A stretch of 64,000 nucleotides of DNA from Escherichia phage EP01, in the sequence record OM135583.1. One strand, given 5' to 3'. Of this stretch, positions 8,074-64,000 are shown piece by piece (the first letter of the stretch is position 1; the number at the start of each line of letters is the position of its first letter). The translations under genes and the position numbers were made by a program. The notes below the pieces were generated by a model. It was not told where the DNA came from. It made no database searches and worked only from the letters and a program-made list of their open reading frames with translations.

Positions 8074-8095
8074 ATGGGAGACTTCGGTCTCCCAT
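8074..8095 (+). terminator. hairpin with UUCG tetraloop after gene 23
   Basis: GGGAGAC, TTCG loop, GTCTCCC, then T-rich tract. Confidence 0.7.
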
Positions 8096-9761: not shown

Positions 9762-9766
9762 AACAA

Positions 9767-9788
9767 AGGGACCGAAAGGTCCCTTTTT
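9767..9788. terminator. bidirectional hairpin between convergent gene 24 and rnlB
   Basis: GGGACC, GAAA loop, GGTCCC, then TTTTT; A-run on the other side. Confidence 0.65.
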
Positions 9789-16278: not shown

Positions 16279-16306
16279 ATTATACCACGTTTACACGTGA
16301 AGCATT
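16279..16306 (-). promoter_or_regulatory. MotA-dependent middle promoter for uvsY
   Basis: Minus strand AATGCTTCA, 13-nt spacer, TATAAT. Confidence 0.75.
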
Positions 16307-16703
16307 ATACTCTATTACTGGAAGCCAGTTGTAGTTTTATCTGTTCAATATCATCAGGGTTATCGATGACCGAAAAGCGTATTTCTACTATCAGAGTATA
16401 ATCATCATAAACTGGTATTACATTAACTGCTAATTTATCAATACGTGGCTCGTAGTTTCTTACTGCGCTTTCGATGTTACGCTCAACTGTATCAGCAGTA
16501 AGAGGAGTCATATTCTCAAAAAGTTGATCAGATAAATCACATCCAAATTCTGGGTCAAAAGGTCTCGACCCCTTTCTGGTTGTAATAATTCCTAAAAGAC
16601 TGTTTTTAATTGACCTTAATCCAAGAGATCTGGAAACGTCTTTGTCCCAATCCATTTTCATTTCTGGGTCAATGTCAGAATAAAGCTTATTAATATTTGC
16701 CAT
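16305..16703 (-). CDS. 25: baseplate wedge protein, 132 aa
   Basis: Size and synteny (26-25) as T4 gp25. Confidence 0.92.
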   Translation of the reverse strand: MANINKLYSDIDPEMKMDWDKDVSRSLGLRSIKNSLLGIITTRKGSRPFDPEFGCDLSDQLFENMTPLTADTVERNIESAVRNYEPRIDKLAVNVIPVYDDYTLIVEIRFSVIDNPDDIEQIKLQLASSNRV

Positions 16704-23619: not shown

Positions 23620-23623
23620 CAAT

Positions 23624-23641
23624 GGGGACCTTTCGGTCCCC
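23624..23641. terminator. bidirectional hairpin between convergent gene 54 and the 96-aa gene
   Basis: GGGGACC, TTTC loop, GGTCCCC, then ATATTTTTA. Confidence 0.65.
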
Positions 23642-23647
23642 ATATTT

Positions 23648-55174: not shown

Positions 55175-56293
55175 ATGGAAAAATTTATGGCAGAGTTTGG
55201 ACAAGGATATGTCCAAACGCCGTTTTTATCGGAAAGTAATTCAGTAAGATACAAAATAAGTATAGCGGGTTCTTGCCCGCTTTCTACTGCAGAAGGACCA
55301 TACGTTAAATTTCAGGATAATCCTGTTGGAAGTCAAACATTTAGCACAGGACTTCATTTAAGAGTTTTTGACCCTTCCACCGGAGCATTAGTTGATAGTA
55401 AGTCATATGCTTTTTCGACTTCAAATGATACTACATCAGCTGCTTTTGTTAGTTTCATGAATTCTTTGACGAATAATAGACTTGTTGCTATATTAACTAA
55501 CGGAAAAGTTAATTTTCCTCCTGAAGTAGTATCTTGGATAAGAACCGCAGGAACGTCTGCTTTTCCATCTGATTCTATATTGTCAAGATTTGACGTATCA
55601 TATGCTGCTTTTTACACTTCTTCTAAAAGAGCTATTGCATTAGAACATGTTAAACTAAGTAATAGAAAAAGCACAGATGACTATCAAACTATTTTAGATG
55701 TTGTATTTGATAGTTTAGAAGACGTTGGAGCTACAGGATTTCCTAAAAGAACATACGAAAGTGTTGATCAATTTATGTCGGCAGTTGGCGGAACTAATAA
55801 CGAAATTGCGCGATTGCCAACTTCAGCTGCTATAAGTAAACTCTCTGATTATAATTTAATTCCTGGCGATGTGCTTTATCTTAAAGCTCAATTATATGCC
55901 GATGCTGATTTACTTGCGCTTGGAACCACAAATATATCTATCCGTTTTTATAACGCATCTAATGGATATATTTCCTCGACACAAGCTGAGTTTACCGGAC
56001 AAGCTGGGTCTTGGGAATTAAAGGAAGATTATGTAGTTGTTCCAGAAAACGCTGTGGGATTTACGATATACGCGCAAAGAACTGCACAAGCTGGTCAAGG
56101 TGGCATGAGAAATTTAAGTTTTTCTGAAGTGTCAAGAAATGGTAGTATTTCGAAACCTGCTGAATTTGGTGTCAACGGTATTCGAGTTAATTATGTCTGT
56201 GAATCCGCTTCACCTCCGGATATAATGATACTTCCTACACAAGCATCGTCTAAAACCGGTAAAGTGTTTGGGCAAGAATTTAGAGAAGTATAA
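55175..56293 (+). CDS. 35: long tail fibre hinge protein, 372 aa
   Basis: Size and synteny as T4 gp35; AAGAGG SD. Confidence 0.9.
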   Translation: MEKFMAEFGQGYVQTPFLSESNSVRYKISIAGSCPLSTAEGPYVKFQDNPVGSQTFSTGLHLRVFDPSTGALVDSKSYAFSTSNDTTSAAFVSFMNSLTNNRLVAILTNGKVNFPPEVVSWIRTAGTSAFPSDSILSRFDVSYAAFYTSSKRAIALEHVKLSNRKSTDDYQTILDVVFDSLEDVGATGFPKRTYESVDQFMSAVGGTNNEIARLPTSAAISKLSDYNLIPGDVLYLKAQLYADADLLALGTTNISIRFYNASNGYISSTQAEFTGQAGSWELKEDYVVVPENAVGFTIYAQRTAQAGQGGMRNLSFSEVSRNGSISKPAEFGVNGIRVNYVCESASPPDIMILPTQASSKTGKVFGQEFREV

Positions 56294-56298
56294 ATTGA

Positions 56299-56316
56299 GG
56301 GAGCCTTCGGGTTCCC
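56299..56316 (+). terminator. intrinsic terminator after gene 35
   Basis: GGGAGCC, TTCG loop, GGTTCCC (one G-U pair), then TTTTTCTTT. Confidence 0.65.
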
Positions 56317-56324
56317 TTTTTCTT

Positions 56325-56332
56325 TATAAATA
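56325..56332 (+). promoter_or_regulatory. late promoter TATAAATA for genes 36-37
   Basis: Exact 8-mer 24 nt upstream of gene 36 ATG. Confidence 0.65.
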
Positions 56333-56355
56333 CTATTAAAATAAAGGGGCATACA

Positions 56356-57015
56356 ATGGCTGATTTAAAAGTAGGTTCAACAACTGGGGGCTCTGTCATT
56401 TGGCATCAAGGAAATTTTCCATTGAATCCAGCCGGTGACGATGTACTCTATAAATCATTTAAAATATATTCAGAATATAATAAACCACAAGCGGCTGATA
56501 ACGATTTCGTTTCTAAAGCTAATGGTGGGACATATCTCAAAAAGGTAATCTTTAACGAAGGCGTTGCAGTCAAAACAGCAGATAACCAAAAGAATGGTAT
56601 TTTTCCTGGTAACGGTGATGCAGCTACTTTTGCTATGGCAAATATTGACATCGTTTCGTGGAATGGTATTGGTTTTAAATCATCACAAGGTTCAGCAGAC
56701 CGAACTGTTGTAATTAATTCACGTAATGGTGATATTAGTACAAAAGGCGTTGTGACAGCAGTAGGTCAAATAAGAAGTAATGCAGTTTCTCCTGTATCAG
56801 CAAATGACCTTACTAGAAAGGACTATGTTGATGGAGCAATAAATACTGTTACGGCAAATGCGAACTCTAGAGTGTTACGATCTGGCGACACTATGACGGG
56901 AAACTTAACCGCACCAAACTTTTTCTCGCAGAATCCTGCATCTCAACCTTCACACGTTCCGCGATTTGACCAAATCGTAATTAAGGATTCTGTTCAAGAT
57001 TTCGGCTATTATTAA
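56356..57015 (+). CDS. 36: long tail fibre distal connector, 219 aa
   Basis: Size and synteny as T4 gp36; TATAAATA at 56325-56332. Confidence 0.9.
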
Positions 57016-57023
57016 GAGGACTT

Positions 57024-60000
57024 ATGGCTACTTTAAAACAAATACAATTTAAAAGAAGCAAAACCGCAGGTGCACGTCCTGCTGCTTCAGTATTAGCCGA
57101 AGGTGAATTGGCTATAAACTTAAAAGATAGAACAATTTTTACTAAAGATGATTCAGGAAATATCATTGATTTAGGCTTTGCTAAAGGCGGGCAAGTTGAT
57201 GGAAATGTGACTATCAATGGACTTTTGAAATTAAACGGCGATTATGTACAAACTGGTGGAATGACCGTAAATGGACCTATTGGTTCTACTGAAGGCATAA
57301 CTGCAAAAGTTTTCAGATCTACACAAGGTTCATTTTATACAAGAGCATCAAACGATGCCTCAAATGCCCATTTATGGTTTGAAAATGCCGATGGTACTGA
57401 ACGAGGCGTTATATATGCTCGTCCTCAAACTACAACCGATGGTGAAATACGTCTTAGAGTTAGACAAGGCACAGGTAGCACTGTAAATAGCGAATTCTAT
57501 TTCCGTTCTATTAATGGAGGTGAATTCCAGGCGGCTCGAGTAATTGCTACTACTTCGATGCATACTCCATCTGTAGTTGTTAATACAGTTAACCATGATT
57601 CTAAAACGTTTGGTCAATATGATAGCCAATCGTTAGTTAACTACGTATACCCAGGCACCGGTGAAACAAATGGTATAAACTATCTTCGTAAAGTTCGAGC
57701 TAAATCAGGCGGAACTATTTACCATGAAATCGCTTCAGCTCAAACTGGTAAGAATGATGAAATTTCTTGGTGGACCGGAAATACACTTACTACTAAATTA
57801 ATGGGTCTTCGTAATGATGGCGCAATGGTATTACGTCGTTCACTTGCTATTGGCACAATTACCACTGATGAAAATACTAACAACTATGGTTCTCCTACTC
57901 CAATGGGAGAAAGATATATTGCTTTGGGTGATGCTGCCACTGGTTTAAAATACATTAAGCAGGGCGTTTATGATTTAGTAGGTAATTGGAATTCTGTCGC
58001 ATCTATTACTCCAGATAGTTTCCGTAGTACTCGTAGAGGTATATTTGGACGTTCAGAAGACCAAGGCACCACATGGATTATGCCTGGAAACAACGCCGCG
58101 TTTTTATCGGTTCAAACACAAGCTGATGGAAACACTGCTGGAGACGGCCAGACACATATTGGCTATAACTCAGGCGGTAAAATGAACCACTATTTCCGTG
58201 GTAAAGGCAAAACTAATATTAATACTCAGGAAGGTGTAGACGTTAACCCGGGTATTTTAAAATTAACAACTGGTGCTAACAGTATTAGCTTTAACGCTGC
58301 AACAGGTAATATTGATTCTACATTAGCCTTTCGTCTTAATAAAGGCATAATTATTGATGGGCCTGATAATCAGGGATTCCAGTTTAACGCACCGACGGCT
58401 GCAGATGGTACTAGAAGTATATACTGGAATAGTGGCACACGCCCAGGTCAAAACAAAAGCCCTGTTACGGTTAAGGCATGGGGAAGTGCGTACAGCACAG
58501 GAGATAAATCTCGTGAAACTGTGTTTGAAGTTGGTGATGGGCAAGGATATTACTTTTATGCGCAGCGTGTAGCTCCCGATTCAGGATCTACTGTCGGACG
58601 AATTCAATTTAGAATTGCTGGAGCATTATTAACCGGTGGTATTACATCATCCGGCTCGATTGTTACAGAATCAAGTTTAGTTGCGAATAATGGATTATCT
58701 GTAAATGGTCAAGCCAAATTTGGCGGAACAGCAAACGCACTGAGAATTTGGAATGCTGAATATGGTGCCATTTTCCGTCGTTCGGAAAATAACTTTTATA
58801 TTATTCCAACCAATCAAAATGAAGGCGAAAGTGGAGACATTCACAGCTCTTTGAGACCTGTGAGAATAGGATTAAATGATGGTATGGTTGGATTAGGAAG
58901 AGATTCTTTTATAGTAGATCAAAATAATGCTTTAACTACGATAAACAGTAACTCTCGCATTAATGCCAACTTTAGAATGCAATTAGGTCAGGCTGCATAC
59001 ATTGATGCAGAATGTACTGATGCTGTTCGCCCGGCTGGCGCGGGTTCATTTGCTTCGCAAAATAATGAAAACGTTCGTGCTCCATTCTATATGAACATTG
59101 ATCGTACAGATACAAGTACTTACGTTCCCATTTTAAAACAACGATATGTTCAAGGAAATAGTTGTTATTCTTTAGGTACTTTAATAAATGGCGGTGACTT
59201 CAGAGTTCAATACCATGAAGGTGGAGATAATAATTCAACAGGTCCTTTAATTAAAGACTTTGGATGGGAATTCCGTCGTACTGGTGACTTCCGCGTACCT
59301 GGTAAAATTATTGCCGGTGCTGCTACTCTTGACACTGATGGTAATATTACGGGTGGTTCAGGAAACTTTGCTAACTTAAACAGTACAATTGAATCACTTA
59401 AAACTGATATTGTTTCAAGTTATCCTATTGGAGCTCCAATTCCATGGCCAACGGATACACCTCCTGAAGGTTATGCAATAATGGAAGGTCAGACTTTTGA
59501 TAAGTCTGCATATCCAAAGTTAGCTGCGGTGTATCCTTCCGGCGCTCTGCCTGATATGCGTGGTCAAACTATCAAGGGTAAACCAAGTGGTCGCGCAGTG
59601 TTGAGCGCTGAGGCAGATGGTGTTAAGGCTCATAGCCATAGTGCATCTGCTTCAAGTACTGACTTAGGCACTAAAACCACATCAAGCTTTGACTATGGTA
59701 CGAAGGGAACTAATACTACTGGTGGCCACACACACTCTGGTAGTGGTTCTACTAGCGCAAATGGTGAGCACAGCCACTACATGGAGGCATGGAGTGGTAC
59801 TGGTAAAGGTGGTAATCTGATGTCATCATATGCCGTAGCATATAGGGCTGGTGGGACTAACACTAATGCAGCAGGGAACCACAGCCACACTTTCTCTTTT
59901 GGGACTAGCGGTGCTGGCGACCATTCCCACTCTGTAGGTATTGGTGCTCACAGCCACACGGTAGCGATTGGTTCGCATGGTCATACTATCACTGTAAATA

Positions 60001-60065
60001 GTACAGGTAATACAGAAAACACGGTTAAAAACATTGCTTTTAACTATATCGTTCGTTTAGCATAA
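57024..60065 (+). CDS. 37: long tail fibre distal subunit / receptor-recognising tip, 1013 aa
   Basis: C-terminal His-rich HxH repeats and terminal NYIVRLA as in T4-type gp37; AAGAGGA SD. Confidence 0.93.
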
Positions 60066-60069
60066 GGAG

Positions 60070-60085
60070 AGGGGCTTCGGCCCCT
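60070..60085 (+). terminator. hairpin with UUCG tetraloop after gene 37
   Basis: AGGGGC, TTCG loop, GCCCCT, 5 nt past stop. Confidence 0.55.
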
Positions 60086-60092
60086 TCTAAAT

Positions 60093-60644
60093 ATGAAAAT
60101 CTATCATTATTATTTTGACACTAAAGAATTTTACAAAGAAGAAAATTACAAACCGATTAAAGGTCTTGGTCTTCCTGCTCATTCAACAATTAAAAAACCT
60201 TTAGACCCTAAAGAAGGCTATGCTGTTGTATTTGATGAACGTATTCAGGATTGGGTTTATAAAGAAGACCATCGCGGTAAACGAGCATGGACTTTTAATA
60301 AAGAAGAAATTTTTATAAGTGACATTGGAAGCCCGGTTGGTATAACTTTTGATGAACCCGGCGAATTTGATATATGGACTGATGACGGTTGGAAAGAAGA
60401 CGAAACATATAAGCGAGTTTTAATTCGTAATAGAAAAATTGAAGAATTATATAAAGAGTTCCAAGTTTTAAATAATATGATTGAAGCTTCTGTCGCCAAT
60501 AAAAAGGAAAAATTTTATTATAAAAATCTTAAGCGGTTCTTTGCTCTTTTAGAAAAGCATGAGCATTTAGGTGGTGAATTCCCTGCATGGCCTGAAAAAG
60601 AACGGAAGCCTTGGTATAAGCGTTTATTCAAGCATTACGTATAA
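60093..60644 (+). CDS. 38: tail fibre assembly chaperone (T4 type), 183 aa
   Basis: Size and sequence as T4 gp38. Confidence 0.9.
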   Translation: MKIYHYYFDTKEFYKEENYKPIKGLGLPAHSTIKKPLDPKEGYAVVFDERIQDWVYKEDHRGKRAWTFNKEEIFISDIGSPVGITFDEPGEFDIWTDDGWKEDETYKRVLIRNRKIEELYKEFQVLNNMIEASVANKKEKFYYKNLKRFFALLEKHEHLGGEFPAWPEKERKPWYKRLFKHYV

Positions 60645-60647
60645 ATA
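60640..60647 (+). promoter_or_regulatory. late promoter TATAAATA for holin t
   Basis: Exact 8-mer 19 nt upstream of t ATG, inside last codons of gene 38. Confidence 0.6.
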
Positions 60648-60665
60648 TCTTAAAAAGGAGGGTCT

Positions 60666-61322
60666 ATGGCAGCACCTAGAATATCATTTTCGCCCTCTGA
60701 TATTCTGTTGGGTGTTCTAGATCGCTTGTTCAAAGATAACGCTACCGGGAAAGTTCTTGCTTCCCGGGTAGCTGTCGTAATTCTTTTGTTTATAATGGCG
60801 ATTGTTTGGTATAGGGGAGATAGTTTCTTTGAGTACTATAAGCAATCAAAGTATGAAACATACAGTGAAATTATTGAAAAGGAAAGAACTGCACGCTTTG
60901 AATCTGTCGCCCTGGAACAACTCCAGATAGTTCATATATCATCTGAGGCAGACTTTAGTGCGGTGTATTCTTTCCGCCCTAAAAACTTAAACTATTTTGT
61001 TGATATTATAGCATATGAAGGAAAATTACCTTCAACAATAAGCGAAAAATCACTTGGAGGATATCCTGTTGATAAAACTATGGATGAATATACAGTTCAT
61101 TTAAATGGACGTCATTATTATTCCGACTCAAAATTTGCTTTTTTACCAACTAAAAAGCCTACTCCTGAAATAAATTACATGTACAGTTGTCCATATTTCA
61201 ATTTGGATAATATCTATGCTGGAACAATAACCATGTACTGGTATAGAAATGATCATATAAGTAATGACCGCCTTGAATCAATATGTTCTCAGGCGGCCAG
61301 AATATTAGGAAGGGCTAAATAA
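60666..61322 (+). CDS. t: holin T, 218 aa
   Basis: Single TM (VAVVILLFIMAIVWY) with large C-terminal periplasmic domain; size and sequence as T4 T; TATAAATA at 60640-60647. Confidence 0.93.
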   Translation: MAAPRISFSPSDILLGVLDRLFKDNATGKVLASRVAVVILLFIMAIVWYRGDSFFEYYKQSKYETYSEIIEKERTARFESVALEQLQIVHISSEADFSAVYSFRPKNLNYFVDIIAYEGKLPSTISEKSLGGYPVDKTMDEYTVHLNGRHYYSDSKFAFLPTKKPTPEINYMYSCPYFNLDNIYAGTITMYWYRNDHISNDRLESICSQAARILGRAK

Positions 61323-61595
61323 TTATTTGTTTGTATACATCTCTAGATATCGATATACACCCTCAAAACCCTCGTTGAATTCGTCGATGAGGGTTTTCTT
61401 ATCTTCTTGGGTTAATTCAGAAACAATTTTACGGAATGAATTCTGATTCAACTTTCTACCTTCATGCGTTACTCCAATCTCATTCAGAAATGCGATAAAA
61501 TTAGCACGATTCTCAACAATATCTTCTCTGGAAAATTTAATCAAAATAGACGCAACAGTAATAATTTCACGAACTGTATCAATGTTTTTATTCAT
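61323..61595 (-). CDS. asiA: anti-sigma70 factor AsiA, 90 aa
   Basis: Sequence MNKNIDTVREIITVASILIKFSRE matches remembered T4 AsiA. Confidence 0.93.
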   Translation of the reverse strand: MNKNIDTVREIITVASILIKFSREDIVENRANFIAFLNEIGVTHEGRKLNQNSFRKIVSELTQEDKKTLIDEFNEGFEGVYRYLEMYTNK

Positions 61596-61607
61596 TAACT
61601 ACACCAC

Positions 61608-61760
61608 TCAATTAGTTGACTTTATTATAATATCATCAGACGCTTGATTTGTAAACTGGTCTGTGTTATTTTCTTCAAAAATTTTTTCTACGAATTCCTT
61701 GAACGACTCACGTTCCTGAGCTACATTATGCTCGATTACCTTTTCAAGATTATGACTCAT
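61608..61760 (-). CDS. possible small protein, 50 aa; absent from ORF track
   Basis: My translation: MSHNLEKVIEHNVAQERESFKEFVEKIFEENNTDQFTNQASDDIIIKSTN; ATG overlaps upstream stop (ATGA). Confidence 0.35.
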   Translation of the reverse strand: MSHNLEKVIEHNVAQERESFKEFVEKIFEENNTDQFTNQASDDIIIKSTN

Positions 61761-62035
61761 TCGAAATAATCTTCAATTTCGTAATCATGGACATAAATCA
61801 TTATAGTTTTTAATACATCATCAATACTTTTTCCTGGAGCTGGAATTACGTAAAAATATCCCGCCTTTGAGTTATCTTTATAAGTTCCAACCAAGAAATC
61901 ATTATTCTCAAGATGTAGTTCTTCAACTAATTCATCGACAATTGAGTGGTATAAATTTGGTAGAAACTTATATAGCTTTTCTAGAATGTCAATTTTGATT
62001 GTATATTGAACCACAGATTGAGAATCAATAATCAT
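61757..62035 (-). CDS. arn: hypothetical protein, 92 aa; size and position consistent with T4 Arn (McrBC inhibitor)
   Basis: Position adjacent to asiA and 92-aa length match my memory of T4 arn; sequence not independently verified. Confidence 0.5.
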   Translation of the reverse strand: MIIDSQSVVQYTIKIDILEKLYKFLPNLYHSIVDELVEELHLENNDFLVGTYKDNSKAGYFYVIPAPGKSIDDVLKTIMIYVHDYEIEDYFE

Positions 62036-62118
62036 AGACCTTCCCCTTATGTTTCTGTTTGCGATTAGATTCTTTAAACGCTTTCTTCTTATCTTTATGG
62101 ACAGAAGCTTTATTAAAA

Positions 62119-62337
62119 TTATGTTTTGCGACTAAATTGTTCATAGTGCTGAATTACCTCTCTTAAACATTTGCATGTGAATGAAAACTTTTTAGCTACA
62201 CCACATTCAAATATATGTTCTCTTAAATCACATGTGTCAGTATATCCCATCTCAACAATAAAATGCCGTATTAGATTTTTATCTTTATCATTGAGAGAGT
62301 TAAAATAATCGGATTTTGAATTAATTTCCCTGGCCAA
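62119..62337 (-). CDS. hypothetical protein, 72 aa
   Basis: Same-strand ORF in the asiA-motA array. Confidence 0.5.
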   Translation of the reverse strand: MAREINSKSDYFNSLNDKDKNLIRHFIVEMGYTDTCDLREHIFECGVAKKFSFTCKCLREVIQHYEQFSRKT

Positions 62338-62617
62338 ATTGAATCACCTTCAGTTGACGTTTTAGTTCTTTTATCATTTCTTCGTTCATCGCAATATAAA
62401 GATCGCGTAAAGCAGGTTTTAACATTCCATTTATTGGGGAACTAAATGGACATACATAATCTTTTCCTACGAGCTTTTTAGTGAATTCCATATTACAGAA
62501 CTGAAATGCCGGTTCATTGGCATAAATTCCCCATTTGGTTGACATCATTTTATTGGCATATTCCAATGCCTGGATTTGATTCATAATTCCATCAATTTGA
62601 AACTTTTTAATATTCAT
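62321..62617 (-). CDS. hypothetical protein, 98 aa
   Basis: Same-strand ORF with overlapping junctions. Confidence 0.5.
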   Translation of the reverse strand: MNIKKFQIDGIMNQIQALEYANKMMSTKWGIYANEPAFQFCNMEFTKKLVGKDYVCPFSSPINGMLKPALRDLYIAMNEEMIKELKRQLKVIQFGQGN

Positions 62618-63078
62618 TAGTAAAGGTCCTCAGAGTAAAGTTCTTTTTCACTACCACCACGTTCAATACGCACTTGTCCAGCATAAGTTGCAATAATCAT
62701 TGCTTCTTCACGTGTCCAATAATTACTATATTGGTCAATAAACCCTTGATCATCATCACAAACTTGCTGAGTAACTAATTGAGGTTTAACTACATCTAAA
62801 ACTGCTGCCATATCTTTAGAATAATGACGAGCACCTGGAATAACAAGAGTTCGTCCATCTTTTAATTTAAAACGGTTGGCTGCGCAAACAATCCGTCGTT
62901 GATACTTTTGGTTTTCGTCCCAATATGCAGACTGCCAACAGATTTCAGGAACTTCTTTTAGAATATCTTCTTCTGTGCATTTATAACCATGTGCTTTAAA
63001 TTTTTCAGCAAGACTTTCTGGAGTCTCACGAGATAAAGGAACATTCAGCATTTTTAAACGATTAATAAATAGATTCAT
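62617..63078 (-). CDS. hypothetical protein, 153 aa
   Basis: Same-strand ORF with overlapping junctions. Confidence 0.55.
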
Positions 63079-63404
63079 TTAAACCATCCTTTAATGCGCT
63101 GCCACAAAGTTTTCTGTTGAGCTTTGTTAACACCAATTGAGCGAATAACTGGTTGAGATTCCTGGAATTCTTTATAATCAGCAAGGTAAATTTCGTAAGC
63201 TGAATCCGTAAAGGAACTTATAGCTGCCATGAAATTATTGCGAATGCCTACTGGAGCATCTTTACTTTCACGAATAATCATGTATTTGCCAGTCTTAATC
63301 TTTACGATAGTTCCAAGATAAGCTCCGTGGTACCAGATGTCCCATCCCTCTTGAGTAGGTTCTGCGCAACGACGAAGTTCATTAACAATTTCTAACTTGT
63401 TCAT
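63075..63404 (-). CDS. hypothetical protein, 109 aa
   Basis: Same-strand ORF downstream of motA. Confidence 0.55.
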
Positions 63405-63414
63405 TATTTATTCC

Positions 63415-64000
63415 TCACAGTTCAGATGCTACGGTGATTACAGCTTCAATGTTTTCTGTTGAGCGTTTAATGTCAAGATACACATTACCGTTTTTAGCGA
63501 TTTTACATGACATTCCGATATCAGTAAATTTCTGAATATGATGTTCCATCATTTTGTATCCAAAAATTCGCATATTTCCATTGTTATTAATTTCAAAATT
63601 ACGAATTCCGTGAGTGCGTTTTTCTAAAATAGCGAGATAGTTACTGCGATAAGTTTCAACTTTTTTAAGAACAAATCCATTTTCATCTAAAAGTTTTAAC
63701 ATGAAGTCTTTATCTTCTTCCATATCGGAAGTAATCTCGCGAGCTTTACGTGTTGCTCGTTTTTTCAGCAGTTCAGGAGCGTTTTCCTGTGCGTATAAAG
63801 TTGCCGCATTTGAAATAATATCCTGAGCTTCACCAGTAATGATTAATCCATCACCAGATTTCTCCACCAGGCCTTTTTTAATCAATACCCCAATATTACT
63901 ATTAACTACTGCGTTACCTAAATCTGGATGCACCTCACGAACTTCTGCAGCTGTAATGAAATCTTTCTTAGCAATGGTAATTAAAATCGCAGCAGTTTTT
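63415..64000 (-). CDS. motA: middle-transcription activator MotA, C-terminal part (N-terminus beyond window)
   Basis: Track fragment from HPDLGNAVVNSN matches T4 MotA; reading frame stays open to position 64000. Confidence 0.85.
   Translation of the reverse strand, partial: KTAAILITIAKKDFITAAEVREVHPDLGNAVVNSNIGVLIKKGLVEKSGDGLIITGEAQDIISNAATLYAQENAPELLKKRATRKAREITSDMEEDKDFMLKLLDENGFVLKKVETYRSNYLAILEKRTHGIRNFEINNNGNMRIFGYKMMEHHIQKFTDIGMSCKIAKNGNVYLDIKRSTENIEAVITVASEL

Follow-up and report, generated by a model that had tools for sequence, protein, structure and literature searches.

How does late transcription of the holin gene t come to an end when the gene that follows it, asiA, encoded on the opposite strand, leaves no room for a terminator? 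The question is raised by the 64,000-nt stretch of Escherichia phage EP01 DNA analysed here (OM135583.1; the whole stretch is called the window and its coordinates are used throughout), which belongs to a Tequatrovirus (T4-type) genome. The genes t and asiA are convergent and 0 nt lie between them, confirming the absence of a dedicated intergenic region noted in the initial annotation of this DNA, which proposed that an inverted repeat inside asiA may terminate the late t transcript. AsiA matches its T4 counterpart at 100% identity, the T4 coordinate equals the window coordinate + 99,555 along the t/asiA stretch, and ~500 Tequatrovirus genomes, T4, T2 and T6 among them, are 97–99% identical over 1.2 kb around the repeat. 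The features discussed below are listed in Table 1.

Table 1. Features of the t/asiA region and of the late transcription units upstream of it.
Feature	Position	Strand	Remarks
Full RNA hairpin	61365–61397	+ (t strand)	5′ arm 61365–61378, loop AUUCG 61379–61383, 3′ arm 61384–61397
Terminator core	61369–61393	+	10-bp stem CCCUCGUUGA / UCGAUGAGGG, 5-nt loop, −13.6 kcal/mol (sub-hairpin energies)
U-rich tail UUUUCUUAUCUUCUU	61394–61408	+	6 U in first 8, 11 in 15
Gene 37	57024–60065	+	
Gene 38	60093–60644	+	
Gene t (holin, 218 aa)	60666–61322	+	ORF; holin annotation in T4 and about 500 related records
asiA (anti-sigma-70 factor, 90 aa)	61323–61595	−	ORF; codons 67–77 encode the hairpin
asiA.1, arn		−	Same side as asiA
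Late-promoter motif TATAAATA	51255	+	Before gene 34; exact match
Late-promoter motif TATAAATA	56325–56332	+	Upstream of gene 36; exact match, just after tetraloop terminator 56297–56318
Late-promoter motif TATAAATA	60640–60647	+	18 nt before t start codon, overlaps gene 38 stop codon; exact match
Sigma-70-type promoter-like site (TTTACA, 17 nt, TG-TATTAT)	61627–61655	−	Upstream of asiA

Anatomy of the hairpin

At the DNA level the repeat is as first described, with two 9-bp arms, AAAACCCTC (61365–61373) and GAGGGTTTT (61389–61397), on either side of a 15-nt spacer, GTTGAATTCGTCGAT (61374–61388), that includes GAATTC; on the plus strand it is followed by CTTATCTTCTT. It does lie downstream of t, at a distance of 42 nt from the end of the t stop codon (61322) rather than the ~45 nt originally given. 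It also lies inside the 3′ part of asiA, though not in its last codons: the repeat coincides exactly with codons 67–77 of 90 (K67–F77, K T L I D E F N E G F, read as AAA ACC CTC ATC GAC GAA TTC AAC GAG GGT TTT), 13 codons ahead of the stop.

The 9-bp description does not carry over to RNA. On the plus strand the stem comprises 14 uninterrupted base pairs, two of them G·U, and closes on a 5-nt loop, since five further pairs (G·U, U-A, U·G, G-C and A-U) form inside what is the 'loop' of the DNA repeat; the AUUCG pentaloop is closed by A-U. RNA folding, put forward earlier as a check of the terminator proposal, gave a stable plus-strand hairpin of −18.0 kcal/mol (z = −6.0), and none of 200 shuffled sequences folded as well. 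With flanking sequence added, the hairpin remained in the minimum free energy fold at both 66 nt and 108 nt and, at the latter length, in the centroid too. A consensus terminator scan counted five G-C pairs in the 14-bp stem, and the terminator core (Table 1) is flanked by AAAA upstream and by a U tract downstream.

The T-rich tract reported after the repeat is also present, with 11 T in the 15 nt counted from 61394. As RNA, this tail is the reverse complement of asiA codons Q63–K67 plus the first base of T68. The segment that follows the G-C core, UUUUCUUA, contains 6 U in 8 nt, enough for the U tract of an intrinsic terminator but not optimal, the tract being interrupted (UUUUCUUAUCUU) by C and A. 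Lysine 66 is encoded by AAG, the minor lysine codon, whereas AAA would have produced seven consecutive U; the tail has therefore not been optimised. A direct repeat, ACCCTC-AAA-ACCCTC, occupies 61360–61373 of the plus strand (asiA peptide E-G-F-E-G) and offers the GAGGG arm a second, out-of-register 5′ partner; the extended stem forms from the proximal copy only.

Strand asymmetry

RNA of the asiA strand folds far less well over the same 33 nt (−10.4 vs −18.0 kcal/mol), forming 9 bp with a large internal loop (z = −2.6), and in a 66-nt context it is indistinguishable from shuffles (z = −1.6). Five pairs are lost on the minus strand, where A/C mismatches in the asiA mRNA take the place of the two G·U wobbles of the t-strand RNA. 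After the hairpin the minus strand continues with UUUUGAGG, without a U tract, and the minus-strand version was absent from both terminator scans. The hairpin is thus not bidirectional, and a minus-strand terminator at this position would also shorten asiA. The codons responsible for the wobbles are ATC and AAC, where the major codons ATT and AAT would give Watson–Crick pairs on both strands. To judge from the sequence, codon choice at these two positions appears to keep the structure on the t RNA and to weaken its counterpart in the asiA mRNA.

The hairpin against chance and coding constraint

A 9-bp inverted repeat is in itself unremarkable. The window holds 18 perfect 9-bp repeats with a spacer of ≤20 nt, compared with 7.5 ± 3.0 in dinucleotide shuffles, and what exceeds chance at this site is the plus-strand RNA structure. 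When both strands of the window were scanned for single hairpins followed by ≥5 T in 8 nt, the best register of the t/asiA hairpin (61366–61396, −17.1 kcal/mol) ranked third among 93 sites, and three sites reached −17 kcal/mol or lower, compared with 0.43 per window in 40 dinucleotide shuffles. The strongest of all, at 16537–16585 on the minus strand (−19 kcal/mol), is an irregular 49-nt stem-loop inside an ORF of the same strand (16305–16703). In the consensus scan of 56.5–64 kb the hairpin had the top pair count (14) of six terminator-like sites; the number of sites is uninformative (6 found vs 5.0 expected), and the weight of that scan lies only in the strength and location of the t/asiA site.

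Coding constraint was addressed by recoding. When K67–F77 was resampled synonymously with codon usage taken from 35 long ORFs of the window, 0.02% of 20,000 recodings reached −18 kcal/mol or better. When all of asiA was recoded by codon usage and the t strand scanned (4,000 trials), a hairpin-plus-T site of ≤ −17 kcal/mol arose anywhere opposite asiA in 0.075% of trials, and permuting asiA's own synonymous codons gave an equally good site in 0.3%. With nulls of 0.0002 for the 11 codons and of 0.00075 and 0.003 for the whole gene, the sequence is biased beyond what coding requires, as expected under selection. Seven of the 11 codons are minor ones (usage: ACC 0.11, CTC 0.06, ATC 0.17, GAC 0.24, TTC 0.32, AAC 0.30, GAG 0.13), and the G-C pairs of the stem are supplied by the ACC, CTC, GAG and TTC codons. 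Rfam returned no match at E ≤ 1 on either strand of 60000–63000.

Another inverted repeat of 9 bp in the neighbourhood, rich in A/T and lying near the beginning of t (AGAATATCA...TGATATTCT, 60678–60706, plus strand, t codons 5–14), reached z = −5 when folded alone and was rejected as a candidate since in a 62-nt mRNA context it was shuffle-like (z = −0.4).

Transcriptional context

Three exact copies of TATAAATA precede late genes of the plus strand (Table 1), and we take them to be late promoters from the known T4 late-promoter consensus. The tetraloop terminator at 56297–56318 closes the 34–35 unit, and the motif at 56325 is the probable start of a 36-37-38-t late transcript ending at the hairpin. 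From 56319 to 64000 no other plus-strand hairpin-plus-T site of ≤ −8 kcal/mol was found, and the hairpin, placed downstream of the last gene of the transcription unit on its own strand, is thus where both the 36-37-38-t and the t transcripts would be expected to end. Read-through past it on the plus strand would run antisense to asiA, asiA.1 and arn, toward motA.

A hairpin-plus-T site was present at all five other convergent junctions called in the window (near 8.07, 9.77, 11.36, 15.37 and 23.63 kb), the fifth junction resting on a short overlapping ORF call. Four of these sites lie in intergenic gaps of 28–55 nt, two of them scoring on both strands; t/asiA is the only convergent junction of the window with a gap of 0. 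The two that score on both strands, at 9765–9786 and 23622–23643, are perfect 9-bp tetraloop hairpins (AAAGGGACC-GAAA-GGTCCCTTT and ATGGGGACC-TTTC-GGTCCCCAT); occupying gaps of 28–29 nt at convergent junctions, they look like bidirectional terminators. Hairpins also cluster at 55187–55288, where genes 34 and 35 meet, and may serve as an attenuator or as a structure acting in translation; the cluster comprises a plus-strand hairpin of −16.8 kcal/mol just inside the start of the ORF at 55175 (55187–55223, tail TTTTATCG) and further hairpins at 55265–55280 on the plus strand and 55259–55288 on the minus strand.

On the minus strand, the site at 61627–61655 is the best promoter-like match in 56.5–64 kb, agreeing at 10 of 12 positions and with an extended −10 element. 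From its sequence it is probably an early promoter, the transcripts of which would have to cross the hairpin in the antisense direction. After asiA the minus strand has no convincing intrinsic terminator, with only irregular sites of −8 to −9.5 kcal/mol before 57055–57088, so that early transcripts of asiA may continue through t and 38 in the antisense direction. For a motA-amber infection, Patterson-West et al. (2018; PMC6024815) described an increase in t and 38 RNA that they left unexplained, at a time of reduced late factors. Early promoters, read through in the antisense direction, could account for it, and such read-through from asiA might delay holin expression.

Distribution among relatives and prior annotation

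The hairpin is identical in T4. Its stem is invariant in 15 aligned Tequatrovirus sequences, in which the sole change across the 33 nt is a loop G to A in AR1 and BCPEco_001, a synonymous GAC to GAT that leaves the energy unchanged. About 490 Tequatrovirus records are 96–100% identical over a 96-nt segment and the next relatives reach at most 80%. A covariation test was dropped because Tequatrovirus diversity is too low, the stem being invariant there and absent elsewhere. In phage wV7 (NC_019505.1, 850–1000) 88 nt are absent, corresponding to ~61291–61378 of the window, from the last codons of t to the hairpin loop; this removes the 5′ arm, creates a new holin C-terminus (...ICSQFVDEGFLIFLG) and cuts AsiA to 76 aa (...LIDELRTY), and may be a real deletion or an assembly artefact.

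The convergent, abutting arrangement of t and asiA (a gap of 0–17 nt or a 4-nt overlap) is kept in ten genera (Tequatro-, Mosig-, Marfa-, Karam-, Jiaoda-, Gelderland-, Winkler-, Dhaka-, Teguna- and Lazarusvirus), among which the strong hairpin is restricted to Tequatrovirus. The same asiA codons form no conserved hairpin in the other genera: the one partial exception, JD18, offers a weak inner stem of 7 bp (−9.2 kcal/mol) that lacks a usable tail, and RB69 encodes KTLISEFNEGF as AAA ACA CTG ATT AGT GAA TTC AAT GAA GGT TTT, which folds at −3.2 kcal/mol. In Mosig-, Karam-, Jiaoda-, Gelderland-, Dhaka- and Tegunavirus no hairpin-plus-T site was detectable opposite asiA, the few weak flank sites lying at least 500 nt past t, and the abutting arrangement is therefore viable without such a signal. 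Two phages have an embedded hairpin-plus-T site of their own, the Klebsiella phage P545 (Marfavirus; +94 to +124 after t, −12.2 kcal/mol) and the Acinetobacter phage Lazarus (+9 to +32 after t, −10.2 kcal/mol). Neither is individually significant, since 2–9% of recodings reach their energies, and each may have arisen on its own in answer to the same need. In Serratia phage Muldoon and Aeromonas phage avDM2, where an additional ORF and a gap follow t, a canonical terminator stands immediately after t; that of Muldoon is annotated in its record. Given these canonical terminators and the hairpin inside asiA in Tequatrovirus, a transcriptional stop just past t recurs in the family, and the Tequatrovirus lineage would place it inside asiA.

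A 'terminator' at asiA is annotated in three GenBank records, MT682709 (phage SP1), NC_055724 (Yersinia phage fPS-65) and LR215723 (fPS-90), the features of the first two lying on the t strand at the equivalent of window 61358–61405 (48 nt); all three were presumably predicted by software. In the T4 reference records the t/asiA site carries no terminator feature, the 2010 Virology Journal reviews on T4 transcription do not mention it, and in the literature on T4 terminators and 3′ ends we found no experimental 3′-end mapping or termination assay for t/asiA. The element is of a standard kind, sits in a model phage and already figures in the public annotation of a few nearly identical phages; it leaves the concept of termination unchanged.

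Probable function and alternative explanations

We consider it likely that the element is an intrinsic, factor-independent terminator which acts in one direction only, on late transcripts of the plus strand, from a position antisense to asiA codons 67–77. Every computational test available supported the original proposal of a terminator: the anatomy, the strand asymmetry, the rare codons, the sole plus-strand site, the other junctions, the relatives and the GenBank annotations all point to it, with the amendment that polycistronic 36-37-38-t transcripts, and not t alone, probably end there too. The other readings that we weighed all fit less well with what the recoding trials, the asymmetry between strands and the position of the site show.

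It is unlikely that the hairpin is a functionless, chance by-product of the AsiA peptide. The peptide K-T-L...E-G-F is certainly palindrome-compatible, as K/F, T/G and L/E codons can be reverse complements, and such a reading would sit well with the abundance of 9-bp inverted repeats (18 vs 7.5 expected), with the six genera that have the abutting arrangement without the hairpin, some with a near-identical peptide as in RB69, with the AAG codon that leaves the U tract unoptimised, and with a clade so nearly invariant that there is no covariation. It does not account for the rarity of equally good structures among recodings (0.02% over the 11 codons, 0.075–0.3% over the whole gene), for seven minor codons each of which builds the stem or gives a wobble pair, or for a site exactly at the expected terminator position. 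Quite unlikely, in our estimation, is a hairpin that acts solely as a 3′-end stabiliser or processing barrier, with polymerase reading through, Rho or nucleases acting downstream and 3′ exonucleases trimming back to the hairpin, so that the end of the t mRNA is protected. A stem of −18 kcal/mol would be stable enough, the interrupted U tract could make release inefficient, and the downstream RNA is untranslated antisense; untranslated RNA is a natural substrate of Rho. The anatomy nevertheless resembles that of the window's intergenic terminators, which have comparable tails (e.g. TTTCTTTA and TCTTGTTT), and a stabilising role is in any case compatible with termination, since terminator hairpins also stabilise RNA.

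An effect on the asiA mRNA itself, for example a limit on AsiA synthesis set by pausing of translation, by premature attenuation or by mRNA decay, seems very improbable. The 9-bp outer stem can still form on the minus strand and is then followed by UUUU, but it is precisely this version that the two wobble positions weaken; its fold is shuffle-like in the 66-nt context, the tail is that given above for the minus strand, Rfam has no match, and a terminator 13 codons before the stop would generate non-stop mRNAs. We give almost no credence to a signal in the DNA, whether a protein binding site, a cruciform or a recombination or deletion hotspot, which would draw on the centring of the palindrome on GAATTC and on the wV7 deletion with its right end in the hairpin loop. 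The extra five pairs need G·U wobbles and exist in RNA only, leaving the DNA version as one of 18 comparable repeats, and wV7 is a single case that truncates both genes and may be an assembly artefact.

Comparison with known systems

With Rho-independent terminators in general the hairpin shares a G+C-containing stem of 10–14 bp, a short loop, a U-rich tract, an upstream A tract and a position soon after the stop codon of the last gene; it is unlike them in lying wholly inside a convergent coding sequence, in a stem that is longer than usual and contains two G·U pairs, and in its interrupted U tract. The T4-type tetraloop terminators of the window (e.g. 8074–8095, 9765–9786, 23622–23643 and 56297–56318) likewise mark the ends of units or convergent junctions and have T-rich tails. 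These, however, are perfect stems of 7–9 bp with UUCG or GNRA-type tetraloops in gaps of 28–55 nt, two of them working on both strands, and the t/asiA hairpin falls outside this class, with its AUUCG pentaloop, 14 bp including G·U, location in a coding sequence and strength on one strand. Bidirectional terminators between convergent genes have been described for E. coli by full-length RNA profiling; they too combine a convergent gene pair with a palindromic stem that has an A tract before it and a U tract after it. The t/asiA element differs from them in that its minus-strand version loses five pairs, has no U-rich tail and would shorten asiA.

A further comparison is with excludon-type 3′ overlaps, to which the junction is similar in that the predicted t 3′ UTR (about 80 nt) would be fully complementary to the last ~25 codons of the asiA mRNA, and dissimilar in that t is late and asiA early and middle, mutual regulation here being hypothetical. 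We regard as improbable the more elaborate proposal that selection on codons built the terminator into asiA, deliberately making it asymmetric between the strands, and that the ~80-nt overlap acts in an excludon-like manner, a duplex with the abundant late t RNA speeding the late shut-off of asiA.

Proposed mechanism and significance

The analysis shows the structure, its strand asymmetry, the codon bias, the genomic context and the distribution among relatives; termination itself, its efficiency and the position of the 3′ end are what we infer from these features. RNA polymerase starting at the late promoters at 60640 or 56325 would transcribe t and then 42 nt into asiA in the antisense direction, before making the hairpin and then UUUUCUUA. 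The hairpin would form in the RNA exit channel, its core stem CCCUCGUUGA/UCGAUGAGGG pairing behind the polymerase, and together with the weak rU:dA hybrid at UUUUCUUA it would lead to release of the RNA at about 61400–61403, a position estimated from the usual 7–9 nt between stem and release site. The predicted product, a t mRNA whose 3′ UTR measures about 80 nt, would end in a stable hairpin cap, extended by AAAA/UUUU pairs, and this cap should shield it against 3′ exonucleases. With no intergenic base available between t and asiA, the signal would have been written into asiA by synonymous codon choice, and because the wobble positions are A/C mismatches in the asiA mRNA, early transcription and translation of asiA should be little affected. 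Late transcription would in this way be kept from running antisense through the early asiA-arn-motA cluster.

As such, the t/asiA hairpin would be an example of a regulatory RNA signal laid over a coding sequence of the opposite strand by means of rare synonymous codons, which is of practical relevance wherever asiA is recoded or codon-optimised or the t region is engineered. For T4-type phages, it would mark where the late transcription units for tail fibres and holin end on their 3′ side and shield the early asiA-motA regulatory cluster from late antisense transcription.
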